Source: Candidatus Multivorans sp. (lineage in GTDB: Bacteria > Acidobacteriota > Thermoanaerobaculia > Multivoradales > Multivoraceae). From it: a DNA stretch of 64,000 nt. Positions 3,795 to 62,063 of the stretch are shown piece by piece. Made by a program: the position numbers and the translations under genes. Position 1 is the first letter of the stretch. Each line of letters opens with the position of its first letter. A model generated the notes under the pieces. The model saw only the letters and a program-made list of their open reading frames with translations, did not search any database and was not told the DNA's origin. Where the stretch lies: assembly GCA_965224025.1 (NCBI GenBank), contig OZ245033.1:1120001-1184000 (forward strand), written 5' to 3'.

Positions 3795-3853
3795 GCGAGT
3801 CGCGGCGTCCGCGCCGCGTTGATGCAGAGGAAAGAGGGCGTGTTCCATGCAAG
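3795..3853 (+). mobile_element. 59-bp non-autonomous IS110-related mini element
   Basis: Flanked by ctagg-AG and AG-cttgcgcggcagaa; contains hairpin cgcggcg-tccg-cgccgcg and ends in tgttccatgcaAG, identical to the IS110 right end at 60282-60294. Confidence 0.8.
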
Positions 3854-19941: not shown

Positions 19942-21504
19942 ATGAACAGAGAGCTTGCATGGAACAAGTTTCCTTTGCGTCAGCGCGGCGCGGACGCCGC
20001 GACTCGACTCCTGGTGGAGAGCGACGCGCTCCAGACTCGGGTAGCTCTAGTCGAGTCCGGCCGGTTGGTGGAGCTCTTCATCGAGCGCCGAGGGCGCCGG
20101 GGCCTGGTCGGCAACCTCTACAAGGGCCGGGTGCGCCGGGTGCTCCCCGGCATGAGAGCCGCCTTCGTCGATCTCGGACTGGAGCGGGACGGCTACCTCT
20201 GGGTCGAAGACGTGGTCGATGCCGGGCCAGGAGAGCGAGGCCCTGAGCGAAGCTCCGGCCGCGCGGCGGGCCGGGAGGCGTTGCCGCCGATCGACGGCAT
20301 GCTGCGCCGGGGCCAGGATCTGATCGTCCAGGTCACCAAGGACGGGCTCGCGGGGAAGGGAGCGCGCATCACCACCCAGATCACGCTTCCCGGCCGCTAC
20401 CTGGTGTTGACGCCGACCGGCGACCGGGTGGCCATCTCGAGGCGCATCGAGGACGCGGACGAACGGGATCGGCTGAAGGGACTGGTCCCGGCTGGTTGCG
20501 ACGACTCCGCCGCCCTGCCGGGCTGCATCGTGCGTACCGCCGCTGCGGGCGTGGGAGAAGAGCAGATCCAGGCGGAGTACGAGACGCTTGCGGCGACCTG
20601 GCGGCGGATCGAGGAGCGGACGGCGGCCGCGGCCGCGCCGGCTCTGCTCCACCGCGAGGACGAGCTGGATGTACGTGTGATCCGGGACCTTTTCTCCGCC
20701 GATTTCGGCTCTCTGCTCGTGGACGGCGCCGACGCCTACCGGCGGATCGGGGAGTACCTTGGGCGGGTGCAGCCGGAGCTCCTCGAACGGGTCGAGCGGA
20801 CCCGGAGAGGTCTGTTCCAGCGCTACCGGATCGACGACGCGATCGAAGCTGCGCTACGTGACCGCGTGCCGCTTCCGTCGGGTGGCTGCCTGGTGATCAA
20901 CCAGACCGAGGCTCTGGTCGCGATCGACGTCAATACCGGCCGCGACGTCGGCGCCGCGGACTTTGAAGAGACGGTTCTCCAGACCAACCTGGAGGCGGCC
21001 GCGGAGGCGGTACGCCAGATCCGGCTGCGCGATCTGTCCGGCATCCTGATCATCGATCTGATCGACATGGAGCGCGAGGATCATCGCGAGCAGGTGTTCG
21101 CCCGCTTGGAGGCGGAGCTCCAGAAGGACCGCGCCAGACACAGAGTGCTCGAGATCTCGGAATTCGGCCTGGTCCAACTGACCCGCCGGCGCAGCCACGC
21201 GAACCTGGAGAAGCTGCTCACCCGGGACTGCCCCTACTGTCAGGGGGCGGGCCGCATCAAGTCGGTTGCGACGATCTGTCTGGAGCTGCGACGAACCTGT
21301 CTGGCCCGGGCCGGGAGCGGCGCCCGTCAGTTGGCGGTGCGGGTCCACCCTGAGGTCCTGGACGGCCTGCGTGGCGCCGAGTCGGCGGTGCTGGACGGCC
21401 TGCAGGGGGCGTTCGAAGCACCGGTCCTGGTTCAGGGGGCCCCGGAGTTGCATCGCGAGCACTTCGTCGTCGCTGAAGTAGCTGAAGCAGGGGAGAGGAT
21501 CTGA
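19942..21504 (+). CDS. rng: Ribonuclease G (Rne/Rng family) carrying an 18-aa N-terminal insertion
   Basis: GNLYKGRV, AAFVDLG, QVTKD...KGAR, IDVNTG, LRDLSGILIID and CPYC motifs. Confidence 0.93.
   Translation: MNRELAWNKFPLRQRGADAATRLLVESDALQTRVALVESGRLVELFIERRGRRGLVGNLYKGRVRRVLPGMRAAFVDLGLERDGYLWVEDVVDAGPGERGPERSSGRAAGREALPPIDGMLRRGQDLIVQVTKDGLAGKGARITTQITLPGRYLVLTPTGDRVAISRRIEDADERDRLKGLVPAGCDDSAALPGCIVRTAAAGVGEEQIQAEYETLAATWRRIEERTAAAAAPALLHREDELDVRVIRDLFSADFGSLLVDGADAYRRIGEYLGRVQPELLERVERTRRGLFQRYRIDDAIEAALRDRVPLPSGGCLVINQTEALVAIDVNTGRDVGAADFEETVLQTNLEAAAEAVRQIRLRDLSGILIIDLIDMEREDHREQVFARLEAELQKDRARHRVLEISEFGLVQLTRRRSHANLEKLLTRDCPYCQGAGRIKSVATICLELRRTCLARAGSGARQLAVRVHPEVLDGLRGAESAVLDGLQGAFEAPVLVQGAPELHREHFVVAEVAEAGERI
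19956..20009 (-). mobile_element. 54-bp IS110-related mini element inserted in frame in rng
   Basis: Minus strand reads ccagg-AG-tcgagtcgcggcgtccgcgccgcgctgacgcaaaggaaacttgttccatgca-AG-ctctct. Removing it restores MNRELLVESD. Confidence 0.82.
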
Positions 21505-41183: not shown

Positions 41184-41330
41184 TCAGCGCTGCGTCCGCG
41201 CAGCGCTGACTTGCAGGGAACTGGTCGCCGACTGGGTGCGCGGGTCTTCTGACCCGCTGCCGCCGGAGGCGGCCAGAGATACGTGCCGGCCGTCAGGCCG
41301 GCTCCGCTTTGGCGGCCAGTTCCCTGCAAG
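41184..41330 (+). mobile_element. 147-bp IS110-related MITE
   Basis: ctagg-AG left junction; hairpin gtcagcgctgcg-tccg-cgcagcgctgac; 20-bp inverted repeat (41210-41229 vs 41311-41330, one mismatch); ends gttccctgcaAG followed by cctgcgcggcag. Confidence 0.82.
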
Positions 41331-57169: not shown

Positions 57170-58639
57170 ATGAAGAGGCTCACCCTGTCATCCATGCGTC
57201 CGATGACGGACGCATGGACTGCTTCACGAGTGGCGCGGATCGCGCCACTCGGGTTCGTTTTCTCGAGCTTCCTGCTGGCGGCGACGGCTGCCGCGCAGGA
57301 GCCACCGAACATCGTCCTGCTGTTCGCCGACGACCTCGGCTACGGCGCCATCTCCGCTTACGGAGGCGCCGGGATCCCGACGCCGAACATCGACTCGCTC
57401 GGCGAGGACGGAGTGCGCTTCGTGTCCGGCTACATGACCGCGCCGGTCTGCAACCCGTCGCGCAACGGCCTGATCACCGGCCGCTACCAGCAGCGCTGGG
57501 GCAAGGAGCTGAACTCCCAGACCGTACCGCCGATCGGCGCTGCCAGGGGGACTCTCGGCATCCACCACCAAACGATCGGCGACGCGCTCCAGACCGCCGG
57601 CTACACGAACGCTGCGGTCGGCAAGTGGCAATTGGGGATGCGGCGGCTCCTCCACCCGCTCGACCGCGGCTTCGACTACTTCTACGGCATGCCGTCGGGC
57701 ATGAACTACGTCGACCCGAGCTGGCCCGGCGCTCACGCGCTGGAGATGAAGCCGGTCACCCGAGGAAGTCCGGACCGCATCGTCGCGATGTTCAAGGGCC
57801 GCGAGGAGGACGAGCTCAAGGAGTACCAGACCACCCAGCTCGCCCGCGAGGGAACCGACTTCATCGACCGCAACAAGGACAACCCCTTCTTCCTCTACCT
57901 CGCCTTCTACGCGGTGCATGCTCCGATGCAGGTGATGGACGAGCACTACCAGCGCTTCCCGGACTTCGACGACCAGTACCGGCGCGTGTACGCCGGCATG
58001 GTCAGCGCGCTGGACGACGCCGTCGGCATGGTCCTGGCCAAGCTCGAGGAACACGGTTTGGCCGACAACACGCTGGTCATCTTCACCGCCGACAACGGCG
58101 CCATGTCCACGCAGGACACCGAGCGGATTCACAACAGCCCGCTGATCGGCCACAAGCGGAACCTGTACGAGGGCGGCATCCGGGTGCCCTTCCTGATGCG
58201 CTTCCCCGGCCGCATTCCCGCGGGCACGGTCTACGAGCACCCGATCAGCTCGCTGGACATCTTCGCCACTTCGGTGAGCCTGGCGGCGGTGCCGGACGTG
58301 GAGCGCTACCAGCTCGACGGCGTCGATCTGTTGCCGTACCTCGCCGGCGAGCAGGAGGGCGCGCCGCACGAGTACCTGTTCTGGCGCTCGGGGCCGAACG
58401 CCGCGGTCCGCCACGGTTCCTGGAAGCTCCTGATGGCTGGAGGCCTGGAGCGGCTCTACGACGTCGACCGGGATTCGAGCGAATCAGAGGACCTGGCCGC
58501 CGCGAACCCGGATATCGTCGCGAAGCTGAAGGAGGCGTTCGCGCGCTGGAACGAGGAGATGGAGGACGGCCGGATGTCACCGCCCGCCCGGCGCGCGACG
58601 ACGACCTACAACGGCGACACCATCGAGTGGCACATCTAG
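57170..58639 (+). CDS. Secreted Cys-type arylsulfatase-family sulfatase
   Basis: Signal peptide; PNIVLLFADDLGYG, CNPSR (CxPxR), GKW, DNG and YEGGIRVP. Confidence 0.92.
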   Translation: MKRLTLSSMRPMTDAWTASRVARIAPLGFVFSSFLLAATAAAQEPPNIVLLFADDLGYGAISAYGGAGIPTPNIDSLGEDGVRFVSGYMTAPVCNPSRNGLITGRYQQRWGKELNSQTVPPIGAARGTLGIHHQTIGDALQTAGYTNAAVGKWQLGMRRLLHPLDRGFDYFYGMPSGMNYVDPSWPGAHALEMKPVTRGSPDRIVAMFKGREEDELKEYQTTQLAREGTDFIDRNKDNPFFLYLAFYAVHAPMQVMDEHYQRFPDFDDQYRRVYAGMVSALDDAVGMVLAKLEEHGLADNTLVIFTADNGAMSTQDTERIHNSPLIGHKRNLYEGGIRVPFLMRFPGRIPAGTVYEHPISSLDIFATSVSLAAVPDVERYQLDGVDLLPYLAGEQEGAPHEYLFWRSGPNAAVRHGSWKLLMAGGLERLYDVDRDSSESEDLAAANPDIVAKLKEAFARWNEEMEDGRMSPPARRATTTYNGDTIEWHI

Positions 58640-58731
58640 GAGTGTCCGCAGCGTTGTCGCTGCGCTGTCGCGCAGGGAACAGGCAGCGAGTAGCCAACGT
58701 TACAGCGGCGTCGTGGGTTCATAGAGTTGGC

Positions 58732-58887
58732 CGCGCTGGGCAGCGAGGCCGCGCAGGCACTGGTGTGTTGGCGCCCGACTAGGAGTTTGGCCCGGACCGT
58801 GATCGGCGCTCTGACGCTGGCGGCGCGGCTTGTGTCGCGACCCCGTATGCAAGATTGAGCTTTTCGCCGCGGTCTCTGCCCAGCGCG
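58732..58887 (+). ncRNA. Candidate IS110 bridge/seek RNA
   Basis: Long stem (58732-58753 with 58868-58887) enclosing ctaggagt (58779-58786, target-left plus core) and atgcaag (58847-58853, right end plus core). Confidence 0.65.
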
Positions 58888-58920
58888 ACGATTGGATTCC
58901 ACATCTACGGGAGGCAGGGG

Positions 58921-60240
58921 ATGGCAAAGCGGAAGGCGGAGCGTCTGGAAGTCGTTCACCCGGATTGCGCCGGTGTGGACGTAGGCAAGCGCAAGCACTA
59001 CGTGGCGGTGGCCCCGTCGCGTTTCGAGCGGCCGGTGCGCAATTTCTCGTCGTTCACGGAGGACCTCGAGGTGATGGCCTCGTGGCTTCAGGAGTGCGGC
59101 GTGCGTGAGGTGGCGCTGGAGTCGACGGGGGTGTACTGGATTCCGGTGTTCGAGGTGCTGGACCGGGCGGGGTTCGAGGTGCATCTGGTGAATCCTCGGG
59201 CGACCAAGCAGGTGAGTGGCCGCAAGAGTGACGTTCTGGACTGCCAGTGGATCCGGCAGTTGATGAGCTACGGGCTCCTGCGCGGTGCGTTTCGCGCGCC
59301 GGACGAGTTGTGTCCGCTGCGTTCGTACACGCGGCAGCGCGCCCAGTTGGTCCGCGACCGCAGCCGCGCGGTGCAGCACATCCAGAAGGCTCTGGTGCAG
59401 ATGAACGTGCAGTTGGACAACGTGCTGAGCGACATCATGGGCAAGACCGGCCAGTTGATCGTGCGCGCGATCGTCGCCGGCGAGCGCGACGGCGCGGCGC
59501 TGGCCCGTCACCGGGACGGTCGCTGCAAGGCTGGTCCGGCTGTGATCGCGGCGAGTTTGCAAGGCAACTGGCGAGACGAGCACCTGTTCGCTCTGGGCCA
59601 GGCGCTGGCCCGCTACGACATGCTGCAAGGCCAGATCGAGATGTGCGAGAAGCGCATCGACGCCGAGCTCGACGGCCTGGCCCAAGACGGCGTCGAGGAC
59701 GCGCCGCCGCCCGGTTCGAAGGCGCGCGAGCGCGCCCTGCGGAAGCGGCTGCATCGCATGCTCGGCGTGGACCTGGTCGCCATTCCGACGGTCGGCGTCG
59801 AAACCGCGCTGACCTTCGCCGCTGAGATCGGCCCGGACCTGTCCCGGTTTCCCTCGCAGGGCAACTTCTGCTCGTGGCTGTGTCTGGCTCCACCGACCAA
59901 CATCAGCGGCGACAAACGGCTGAACGGCCCTCCCGTGAAGCAGACCAACCGGGTCGGCCAGACGCTGCGCCAAGCCGCCACCACAGCCCGCAACAGCAAG
60001 ACCGCCATCGGAGCCTCTCACCGCCGGCGTCTCCAGCACATGGAGAAGGCGAAGGCCATCAAGGCCACCGCTCATCAACTCGGCCGACTGATCTACGCCA
60101 TGCTGACCCACGGCGAAGAGTACGTCGAGCGCGACCTCGCCGAAATGGAGGCCGTCCGACGCGAACGACAAATCAGAAACCTGCAGCGTCAGGCCCGCCG
60201 CCTGAATCTGGCTCTCGTGCCGACCGAACATGCCGCCTGA
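58921..60240 (+). CDS. IS110 family DEDD recombinase/transposase
   Basis: GVDVG, ALESTGVYW, KSDVLD, IPTVG, RFPS and PPTNISG; GGGAGG RBS upstream. Confidence 0.95.
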   Translation: MAKRKAERLEVVHPDCAGVDVGKRKHYVAVAPSRFERPVRNFSSFTEDLEVMASWLQECGVREVALESTGVYWIPVFEVLDRAGFEVHLVNPRATKQVSGRKSDVLDCQWIRQLMSYGLLRGAFRAPDELCPLRSYTRQRAQLVRDRSRAVQHIQKALVQMNVQLDNVLSDIMGKTGQLIVRAIVAGERDGAALARHRDGRCKAGPAVIAASLQGNWRDEHLFALGQALARYDMLQGQIEMCEKRIDAELDGLAQDGVEDAPPPGSKARERALRKRLHRMLGVDLVAIPTVGVETALTFAAEIGPDLSRFPSQGNFCSWLCLAPPTNISGDKRLNGPPVKQTNRVGQTLRQAATTARNSKTAIGASHRRRLQHMEKAKAIKATAHQLGRLIYAMLTHGEEYVERDLAEMEAVRRERQIRNLQRQARRLNLALVPTEHAA

Positions 60241-60294
60241 ATCGCGCAACCTGCGCTGCCAACAAGGAACCCCTACCCGTTTGTTCCATGCAAG

Positions 60295-60344
60295 TCTGCG
60301 CGGCAGAAACGCAACATGGTGAGTTCTGGCGCGCAGACTCCTGG
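60295..60344. repeat. Remainder of the palindromic (REP-like) IS110 target, including an unoccupied inverted copy
   Basis: tctgcgcggcagaa and ttctggcgcgcagactcctgg (reverse complement ccaggAGtctgcgcgccagaa). Confidence 0.75.
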
Positions 60345-60681
60345 CGAGGCTTCGCCTCAGACCGACGAGCATGTCCTTGCGGGCTACGCGAGCCGACGTA
60401 TCGATGCATGGCTCTGGCTGAAACTTGCCTCAACTGTAAAGACCACGCTCGTTCAAGGAGTCTAGTGAGGTGGGGGCTGGGGCCAAACACGGAGCTGCGA
60501 CGGGTTGGCGGCTCTAGCCCGCATGCCTCGCCGATCCTCTTGGTGTGGATCCTCGTTCGGCGGGGATAGACTTCAGTCCCTTGCCGGGGCTCTGCAGTGC
60601 CGTGAGATGGCCTGCCCTCGCTCCGTAAAGCGGACGCCTCCGACCGGAGACGTTCCCTGAAGCAGGGAGAACAAGATCGAG

Positions 60682-60804
60682 ATGACGACCCACGACACAA
60701 CCGCGGCGCTTGCCGGGCCCGGCGGCTTTGCCGACATCCGGGCGACCGGCAGCAGTGCCTGCATCGTCAACGCGCCGGACTTCAAGCCGCACGCCTTCTC
60801 CTGA
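60682..60804 (+). CDS. Possible 40-aa small protein or gene remnant
   Basis: MTTHDTTAALAGPGGFADIRATGSSACIVNAPDFKPHAFS; AGGGAG upstream and GC-rich third codon positions. Confidence 0.25.
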   Translation: MTTHDTTAALAGPGGFADIRATGSSACIVNAPDFKPHAFS

Positions 60805-60944
60805 TCGCGGGTGACTCCGGCGACACCGGCCGGAAGGCCGGCGTACCGGGAGCTGCGGCGCCGGCGTGCAGGGGGCGTATTGCTGCGGTTCGGAAGCCGC
60901 GGCGCCTAGCGCCTCCGGTAGAGTGAGCCGCTTAGGAGGCCACG

Positions 60945-62063
60945 TTGACCACAGAGAATTCCACACCGACGAACCGATCCGTTTGGGGCGTCCACGCGGC
61001 CGTCTACGCGGTCCTGCTTGCAGTCATCGCGTTCCTGGTCCTGCGCCCCGAGCCCGGGGCCTCGGCCCAGGAGGCGAGCGCTCAGGACCAGGCGGCCGCG
61101 CGGCTCGACGGCGTGGACATCGGCCACGGCGAGGCGCTTGATCGGGCGGCCGCGCAGTTGGACGAGTTGGAGCAGCAGCGCGTCCAGTGCGACCTGCAGG
61201 TCAACTCCGAGCGGCATGGCCTGATCGAGCGGACGCTCGAGGGGATCGTCCGCGACCGCCTGGTCATTGCTGCTGCCGGGGAGGCGGGTCTGGCGCCCGA
61301 GGTCTGGCGGGAGGCGGAGATGGAGCGTCTCCAGGCCGAGCTTTCGGACGAGGACATCGACGCCTTCTTCACCGAGAACGAGGGCCGCATCCGGGGTGAG
61401 CGGGAGGAACTCGAGCCTCAGGTCCGGGTGTACCTGGCCCAGCAGCGGTTCGTGGAGTTTCTCGAGGACGGGCACGAGATCGAGTATCTGGTCGAGCCGT
61501 ACCGTCTCTCGGTCGATCCCGCGACCGGGCCGGCACGAGGCGGGGCCGAGGCGCTGGTGACGATCGTGGAGTGGTCGGACTTCGAGTGCCCGTACTGCAA
61601 GCGGATCCTGCCGACCCTGGAACAGCTCTTCGAGGAGTACCCGACGGAGGTGCGCCTGGTGTTCCGTCACTTCCCGCTGCACGCGATCCATCCCAACGCC
61701 CAGGCCGCGGCCGAGGCCGCGGTGTGCGCCCAGGACCAGGGCGCCTTCTGGGCGCTGCACGACCTGATGTTCGAGGAGCAGGACACGCTTGGCGTGGACG
61801 ACCTGAAAGACAAGGCGGAGAGGGCCGGCCTCGACGCGGAGGCCTTCGCGGCTTGCATGGAGGCCGAGGACACGCCGGGTCGCGTGGAGGCCGACCGGCG
61901 GGCCGGGATCGAGGTCGGGGTCAACGGGACGCCGGCGCTGTTCGTGAACGGCCGGCCGCTCGCGGGGGCGGTCGCCTACGAAGAGTTGGCCGGGGTGGTC
62001 GAGGACGAGCTCGTTCGGACCGCGGCGGGAGGGCAGTCGTCGGACTCGGGGAAGGGGCTTTGA
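60945..62063 (+). CDS. Membrane-anchored DsbA/thioredoxin-fold disulfide oxidoreductase
   Basis: VTIVEWSDFECPYC, RHFPL..H and GVNGTP (cis-Pro loop); N-terminal TM helix. Confidence 0.9.
   Translation: MTTENSTPTNRSVWGVHAAVYAVLLAVIAFLVLRPEPGASAQEASAQDQAAARLDGVDIGHGEALDRAAAQLDELEQQRVQCDLQVNSERHGLIERTLEGIVRDRLVIAAAGEAGLAPEVWREAEMERLQAELSDEDIDAFFTENEGRIRGEREELEPQVRVYLAQQRFVEFLEDGHEIEYLVEPYRLSVDPATGPARGGAEALVTIVEWSDFECPYCKRILPTLEQLFEEYPTEVRLVFRHFPLHAIHPNAQAAAEAAVCAQDQGAFWALHDLMFEEQDTLGVDDLKDKAERAGLDAEAFAACMEAEDTPGRVEADRRAGIEVGVNGTPALFVNGRPLAGAVAYEELAGVVEDELVRTAAGGQSSDSGKGL

Follow-up and report, generated by a model that had tools for sequence, protein, structure and literature searches.

An intact, multi-copy IS110-family element downstream of a sulfatase gene

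The window analyzed here is a 64,000-nt stretch of the genome of Candidatus Multivorans sp. (Acidobacteriota; contig OZ245033.1, positions 1,120,001 to 1,184,000 of the forward strand). Downstream of a sulfatase gene (PF00884, E = 3.1e-61) it carries an insertion sequence of the IS110 family, which occupies positions 58643-60294 of the window on the plus strand and is 1652 bp long including the right-hand AG. The element consists of a transposase gene between non-coding ends of 278 nt on the left and 54 nt on the right, and the left end holds the gene of a guide RNA. The features of the locus are as follows (window coordinates, position 1 being the first letter).

58636-58642, plus strand: left half of the target, CTAGG, with the AG core; found beside 14 of 14 copies and also at unoccupied repeat sites
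58643-60294, plus strand: insertion sequence; 14 copies, 99.8-100% identical, with the same limits
58647-58664, plus strand: left-end hairpin CGCAGCG-TTGT-CGCTGCG, read from the sequence, with equivalents in relatives and mini-elements
58672-58681, plus strand: left arm of the subterminal inverted repeat, GCAGGGAACA; complementary to the right arm at 9 of 10 positions
58727-58891, plus strand: bridge/seek RNA gene; covariance model R1, 158.4 bits
58921-60240, plus strand: open reading frame of the transposase/recombinase, 439 aa; Pfam and NCBIfam matches, alignment with IS621
60282-60291, plus strand: TGTTCCATGC, right arm of the subterminal inverted repeat, with the 3-bp extension AAG after it
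60293-60294, plus strand: right-hand copy of the AG core; same ends in 14 of 14 copies
60295-60308, plus strand: right half of the target and first arm of a local palindrome, TCTGCGCGGCAGAA; from the junction reading and the guide pairing
60324-60344, minus strand: second palindrome arm, ttctggcgcgcagactcctgg; resembles the target with 2 mismatches and is unoccupied

The left junction reads ctagg (58636-58640), AG (58641-58642) and tgtccg (58643-58648), the wider sequence over 58636-58653 being ...cacatCTAGG-AG-TGTCCGCAGCG..., and the right junction reads ttgttccatgca (60281-60292), AG (60293-60294) and tctgcgcggcagaa (60295-60308), or ...TTGTTCCATGCA-AG-TCTGCGCGGCAGAA when 60281-60308 is written across the junction. 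A blastn search of the 5.14-Mb genome with the 1652-bp stretch returned the 14 full-length copies. In all of them the left boundary falls between CTAGGAG and TGTCCGC and the right boundary directly after ...CATGCAAG, and all right flanks are of the type N-C/T-T-G-C-G-C-G/C-G-C-A-G and diverge further out. Because AG alone is common to both junctions, the crossover is placed at this 2-bp core with nothing else duplicated. The two junctions were thus read exactly as a first-pass annotation of the same DNA had claimed, and the alignment of all genomic copies upheld the exact ends and the AG core without target duplication that it had also proposed.

The product of the open reading frame, which is preceded by GGAGG at 58910-58914, matched both PF01548 (DEDD_Tnp_IS110, E = 6.2e-25) and PF02371 (Transposase_20, E = 3e-11), and scored 267.8 bits against the NCBIfam model NF033542 (‘IS110 family RNA-guided transposase’), for which the cut-off is 140. 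The sole relative of solved structure was the IS621 transposase (chain 8wt6_A, E = 1.4e-8), which aligned mainly over the N-terminal domain. In this alignment the predicted catalytic residues D20, E67, D104, D107 and S329 correspond to D11, E60, D102, D105 and S241, the catalytic residues of IS621 according to PMC11208158 (the numbering of the chain is offset by two from the published residue numbers), and S329-G330 lies opposite the catalytic Ser-Gly (SG motif) of IS621. The assignment to the IS110 family made in the first-pass annotation is borne out by these matches, the family being understood as ISfinder defines it (DEDD/Ser RNA-guided transposases). Moreover, the open frames are full length in 14 of 14 copies, with 99.3-100% amino-acid identity.

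The left end encodes a conserved, probable guide RNA

Related loci were collected from genome records (59) and metagenome contigs (67), among which the region just 5' of the transposase start codon aligned well. RNAalifold analysis of 17 relatives predicted 44 base pairs in this region, 22 of them with compensatory changes, and a covariance model built from the 17-sequence alignment recovered 90 instances of the RNA from 98 sources, all of them 5' of a transposase gene and on its strand. In the present genome the model matched the 14 copies, each at 158.4 bits, together with two fragments, and it matched upstream of the transposase gene only. In the 90-row alignment, 95.1% of the cells were paired, compared with 38-44% when the partners were slid by 1-3 columns, and 30 of the 44 pairs changed on both sides, values that were reached by none of 500 shuffles. 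The RNA is placed on the plus strand on account of its conserved and frequent G-U pairs. Its outer stem joins 58730-58741 with 58878-58889 and encloses two internal loops, the first closed by GGCC (58747-58750) with GGCC (58789-58792) and the second by GGCG (58805-58808) with CGCC (about 58865-58868). The first-pass annotation, which had described site-specific insertion, was right in that respect and made no mention of a guide RNA in the left end.

The same model also matched upstream of transposase genes on plasmids. A tblastn search of plasmid sequences returned 502 records, all less than 60% identical to the transposase, and none of the annotations named the type; the closest annotated genes, 45-52% identical, are labelled merely ‘IS110 family transposase’, and upstream of two of the closest the RNA model found a match.

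Guide sequences of the RNA follow the junctions

Each of the two loops holds one segment on its 5' side and one on its 3' side that can be compared with the DNA at the junctions.

58751-58758, plus strand: 5' side of the target loop, GCGCAGGC; complements the top strand from the core G through right target position +7
58779-58785, plus strand: 3' side of the target loop, CUAGGAG; equals the left target plus core
58809-58817, plus strand: 5' side of the donor loop, CUCUGACGC; support is limited to two pairs, C58815 with the core G and A58814 with the left end's first T
58847-58853, plus strand: 3' side of the donor loop, AUGCAAG; equals the right end of the element plus core

Since CUAGGAG has the same letters as the left target and core, it pairs with the bottom strand. 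The correspondence holds across the relatives. Of 69 non-redundant loci, 57 carry their own target-loop 3' 7-mer at the left junction, as an exact match 45-90 nt upstream of the RNA, as against 53 of 4276 comparisons with swapped guides, and these 7-mers comprise 28 distinct sequences, every one ending in AG. Likewise, 61 of 71 loci have their own donor-loop 3' 7-mer at the right end, as against 46 of 4122 comparisons with swapped guides. The 12 left and 10 right misses are mostly one-mismatch, truncated or nested copies.

On the 5' side of the target loop, a conserved C (C58758 in this copy) pairs with the core G in 96% of 56 loci, and the next four guide positions covary with target positions +1 to +4 (Z = 3.0, 4.3, 4.5 and 2.4, respectively, against shuffled loci). 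A register that places CU (58760-58761) on the core with CA bulged was considered and found to be unsupported, as the diagonal of covariation begins at C58758 opposite the core G. Within this genome, pairing with GCGCAGG at five or more of the seven positions was found at 13 of 14 occupied sites, compared with 254 of 2743 random AG sites, and at 49 of 122 unoccupied CTAGGAG sites; the single occupied site that pairs poorly belongs to a copy with a mini-element directly after it.

The donor loop is less regular on its 5' side: among 50 loci, 90% show pairing of the C with the core G and 42% pairing of the adjacent base with +1, and the diagonal goes no further. CCGGAC (58792-58797) was rejected as a guide for the left end, because its stem with 58871-58876 covaries in the relatives. 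A comparison of all RNA columns with the donor ends was too noisy and was confounded by shared descent, and from it we kept only the correspondence of base 58786, which follows CUAGGAG, with the base at which the left end starts: the two are the same in 77% of 61 loci. In kind the element is an ordinary one, an RNA-guided member of the IS110 family that is intact and multi-copy; its guide RNA is clearly readable and its layout unusual.

The target is a repeat terminus rather than a palindrome

CTAGGAG occurs 136 times on both strands of the genome, compared with 571 occurrences expected from base composition. The element follows 14 of these, and 26 of the remaining 122 are followed by N[CTG][TCG]GCGC. 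Elsewhere in the genome there are unoccupied CTAGGAG-N-CTGCGCGGCAG sites, four of them exact and five with one mismatch, and CTAGGAG is therefore part of the target and not of the element. The targeting determinant is CTAGG-AG together with about 7 nt to its right (N-C/T-T-G-C-G-C).

The first-pass annotation had further proposed that deleting the element restores a long hairpin, that the second arm of this hairpin is an unoccupied copy of the target, and that insertion is specific for a palindromic target resembling a repetitive extragenic palindromic (REP) sequence. At this locus the hairpin is indeed re-created: removal of 58643-60294 leaves a 19-nt reconstructed target with a reverse-complement partner 31 nt downstream (2 mismatches), and the second arm, read on the minus strand as CCAGG-AG-TCTGCGCGCCAG, is the target-like site that it had been taken for. 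A partner arm with at most five mismatches was found, however, at only 3 of the 14 occupied sites, and the rest lie in repeats of different families that have the terminal motif in common. The target motif is multi-copy and terminal to several repeat families, and the palindrome, with a partner at so few sites, is a property of one of these families and not the common determinant. Specific insertion into a REP-like repeat stands, and the long palindrome is incidental to targeting. Directly to the right of the palindrome, at 60341-60400 of the window, lies a repeat of about 60 bp that is found in seven other places of the genome at 97-98% identity.

The 3' end of the orthologous sulfatase gene was compared in nine congeneric genomes (gene identity 86-93%), and both the element and the repeat are absent there. 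The congeners' stop codon is TGA in seven and TAG in two, the TGA lying at the same codon as the TAG of the present genome. This comparison neither supports nor refutes the target reading; since the orthologous site of the congeners is without the repeat, the empty-allele test rests on the paralogous sites within this genome. In the present copy the TAG stop of the sulfatase gene (58637-58639) is supplied by the repeat terminus and sits within the left half of the target. One congener locus (L163, of L158-L166) has CTAGGAG at the end of the sulfatase gene, followed by unrelated sequence.

The subterminal repeat, mini-elements and a possible recognition of the donor

The imperfect subterminal inverted repeat noticed in the first pass is conserved in position: in all but one of 44 relatives (43 of 44) the left-end segment that best matches the right arm is found at +30 to +36, and the arms agree with at most two mismatches in 26 of 44 loci, compared with 192 of 1708 pairings with the arms of other loci. 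The arms also covary, the observed pairs including GGAACA/TGTTCC, CAAACA/TGTTTG, CTAACA/TGTTAG and GAAACA/TGTTTC. The repeat is an IS1111-like trait.

The genome also contains at least 15 copies of mini-elements of 53-59 bp, in which the first T and the hairpin are followed by both repeat arms, left then right, and by ...CCATGCAAG. They are preceded by AG in 15 of 15 cases and by TAGGAG or CAGGAG in 10 of 15, and they adjoin REP-like sequence, the preceding motif being of the form (C/T)(T/C)AGGAG, such as CTAGGAG or CCAGGAG. Two lie in the window, and a third is given as an example from elsewhere in the genome.

3795-3853, plus strand: mini-element in the window
19954-20007, minus strand: mini-element in the window
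G000 C1, about 1070799-1070856: mini-element of this genome (G000) outside the window

Except for the T, the first six bases of the mini-elements differ from those of the full element, a divergence that agrees with the absence of RNA pairing past +1. The mini-elements are probably mobilized in trans by this element, and the donor would be defined by the hairpin and the repeat arms, with pairing of AUGCAAG at the right end.

A further structure was observed at 41210-41221 (minus strand) and 41319-41330 (plus strand) of the window, where two inverted GTTCCCTGCAAG ends lie about 100 bp apart. These ends are part of a longer repeat, which is found beside the element copies at C1:4161482 and C1:111519 as well, and the paired structure may be another non-autonomous derivative.

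Relatives include apparently retargeted branches and rearranged copies

In one set of relatives (L031, L032, L016, L050, L053, L055, L056, L140 and L094) the target 7-mer equals a right end of the family plus core. The 7-mers concerned are ATGCAAG, ATGAAAG, ATGCGAG and ATGGAAG, sometimes other than the right end of the element itself, and the copies of these branches stand directly behind the right ends of mini-elements or of other copies. For example, L055 contains two tandem copies, and at L031 two mini-elements and a full element are stacked at a CTAGG-type site. With a target loop that equals family right ends, these branches would stack behind resident copies or form tandems.

A second member of the family is apparently split between two places of the present genome. 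L016 (G000 C1:909031-909270) is a left end that has kept its guide RNA intact (161.8 bits), the target guide being AUGCAAG, and is without a transposase gene, and L015 (C1:2129247-2130563, minus strand) carries a transposase gene 84.7% identical to the one described here and is without a guide RNA. Both break at the same ...ATTTGAAT point, beside a terminus of the GGGGATTATA type that belongs to another element. At L017 (G000 C1:4134160-4134336), a guide RNA gene is interrupted in its middle, exactly after the 3' target guide, by a junction with a right end ...GTTCCATGCAAG; apparently the variant's RNA gene was itself used for recombination, at the ATGCAAG that it contains.

Proposed mechanism and alternative explanations

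Our results point, with a probability of about 85%, to an IS110-family element that is active or was so recently, and whose movement proceeds through site-specific recombination at an AG core, guided by RNA and mediated by a serine. In the proposed mechanism, the left non-coding end would be transcribed from the transposase strand into a bridge/seek RNA of about 165 nt with two internal loops. The 5' side of the donor loop would contribute only about two pairs with the left end of the element (the core G and the first T), and the left end would probably be recognized through the hairpin and the subterminal inverted repeat. A circular intermediate with the junction ...CATGCA-AG-TGTCCG... would then recombine, through the predicted catalytic serine, with CTAGG-AG-NCTGCGC sites, the terminus common to several REP-like repeat families.

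Several observations weigh against this interpretation. As to the RNA, the pair counts come from an alignment fitted to the model, which favors the structure; helix 6, which is predicted for the second (donor) loop and is 4 bp long, shows no compensatory changes; an Rfam search of 58000-61000 gave no family match, the only hit being AS-traI below threshold (E = 0.57); and the left end, folded as a single sequence, does not exceed shuffled sequences in stability (z = 0.43). As to the guides, 12 of the 69 loci are without an exact left-junction match, the covariation of the 5' target guide is moderate in that some off-diagonal cells also reach Z of about 3, and no RNA pairing to the left end of the element is demonstrable beyond 2 nt. 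Finally, the assembled contigs of four sequencing runs showed neither a joint of the right end to the left end, as expected of a circle, nor an empty-site contig, and a simple promoter and terminator scan of 58560-58960 found nothing. The unitigs of the element begin at 58636-58637 and, in the best-covering run, reach 60294, with a word depth about 10 times that of the flank. An A/T-rich, TATAAAG-like patch directly precedes the RNA in some relatives; it agrees with a loose pattern at no more than 30 of 73 loci and is degenerate in this copy, so that we propose no start site.

The negative results from the contigs and the promoter scan would also fit copies that are inert relics of an older burst, or products of recombination between repeats, the element itself being immobile. 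We consider this unlikely, since the nucleotide and amino-acid sequences of the 14 copies are almost identical with every frame full length, the RNA genes score the same in every copy, the predicted catalytic residues are all in place and about 26 good free targets are left.

The palindrome raises another question, namely whether the target is selected mainly through recognition of a REP hairpin by the protein, with the conserved left-end structure serving as a leader for translation or transcription of the transposase gene and not as a guide. This copy does lie within a 19/21 palindrome, the RNA ends 30 nt ahead of the start codon, and in ISPpu10 a stem-loop at the target is reported to add specificity beyond RNA pairing (bioRxiv 10.64898/2026.03.19.712850). 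Such a reading is nevertheless quite improbable given how few sites have the partner arm and given that the loop 7-mers follow the junctions over 28 different targets, which is unlike a leader. Local structure may contribute to insertion efficiency. It is hardly credible, lastly, that the element starts at 58636 with CTAGGAG as its own terminus and inserts beside N-CTGCGC with no sequence requirement on the left: although CTAGGAG is invariant beside all copies and the unitigs of the repeat begin at 58636-58637 in three runs, the unitig start merely mirrors the sequence common to all copies, CTAGGAG directly precedes the right-target sequence at the unoccupied sites, relatives with different left 7-mers have exactly that 7-mer in the RNA loop, and mini-elements follow CCAGGAG and further variants.

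Comparison with IS110- and IS1111-type systems

The proposed RNA-guided, site-specific recombination at the AG core invites comparison with the characterized families. As in IS621 of E. coli (PMC11208160, PMC11208158), a DEDD RuvC-like domain is combined with a Tnp domain bearing a catalytic Ser, the RNA has a target loop and a donor loop with one guide per DNA strand each, and a 2-bp core lies within the pairing, with a handshake-like base after the 3' target guide. Unlike in IS621, the order of the guides is reversed and the core is AG in the RNA sense, the reading on the opposite strand giving the IS621 geometry; about two pairs are formed on the 5' donor side, in contrast to the 8-nt pairing of the left donor guide of IS621; and the subterminal repeat measures 10 bp and not 2-3 bp. 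The IS621 protein is moreover a distant relative, as the E-value given above indicates.

In having the longer non-coding region upstream of the transposase gene, the element resembles the IS110 type in general (IS621, ISEc21, ISPpu10). It departs from that type in that the top-strand guide (GCGCAGGC, 58751-58758) precedes the bottom-strand guide (CUAGGAG, 58779-58785), and in its 10-bp subterminal repeat with 9 of 10 positions matching, where the IS110 type has no repeat or one of 2-3 bp. ISPpu10 of Pseudomonas putida, an IS110 element that targets REP sequences, uses a bridge RNA and a CT core and follows the pairing logic of IS621 (bioRxiv 10.64898/2026.03.19.712850). Like ISPpu10, the present element is multi-copy and RNA-guided and inserts into a conserved REP-type intergenic repeat, and we liken it to ISPpu10 also in that cargo flanked by the element ends is mobilizable there. 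The stem-loop of the target is a reported second determinant for ISPpu10, in contrast to the long palindrome here, which is missing at 11 of 14 sites.

In the IS1111-type seekRNA elements ISEc11, ISKpn4 and ISPa11, the guide complementary to the top strand comes first. The non-coding region of this type lies downstream, and its subterminal repeats leave 6-7 bp outside the left arm and 3 bp outside the right one (PMC11187229). The element described here shares with them the position of the top-strand-complementary guide 5' of the bottom-strand guide, the subterminal inverted repeats and the 3-bp extension past the right arm, and with ISPa11 the targeting of REP sequences. It differs in the upstream position of its non-coding region and in a left extension of 29 bp that contains a hairpin. 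Its repeat of 10 bp with one mismatch is below the 11-13 bp usual for IS1111 and within the range of 7-17 bp (PMC11208160). ISMtsp17 is one of few IS1111 relatives with an upstream non-coding region (PMC11187229); the likeness to it in this respect follows from a single-sentence description of that element. In the literature that our search covered, no description was found of an upstream RNA with the top-strand guide first.

Because an upstream RNA and a 29-bp left extension are mixed here with the guide order, repeat and right extension of the IS1111 type, we file the element under IS110 in the wide sense, as a variant that fully fits neither the IS110 nor the IS1111 type. More tentatively, and with less than even confidence, we suggest that this element belongs, together with its roughly 90 relatives, to a lineage standing between the two types, with an upstream RNA, IS1111 polarity (top-strand guide first, AG core in the RNA sense) and a subterminal repeat. 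In this lineage the left end would be recognized mainly through the hairpin and arm, with about two RNA-DNA pairs, mini-elements that retain just these features would be mobilized in trans, and several branches would have been retargeted to the right ends of the family.

RNA-guided recombinases of the IS110 and IS1111 types are under development as programmable tools for DNA insertion. For such work the family provides a natural reprogramming series, in which 28 target 7-mers with matching junctions are combined with a compact RNA, and its natural mini-donors mark the minimal requirements in cis. The mixed layout bears on how guide RNAs move between the ends of elements in evolution and on how donor ends are recognized where RNA pairing is minimal. 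For this genome, the guide explains why the 14 insertions are confined to one repeat terminus, and it predicts about 26 more sites that pair equally well.

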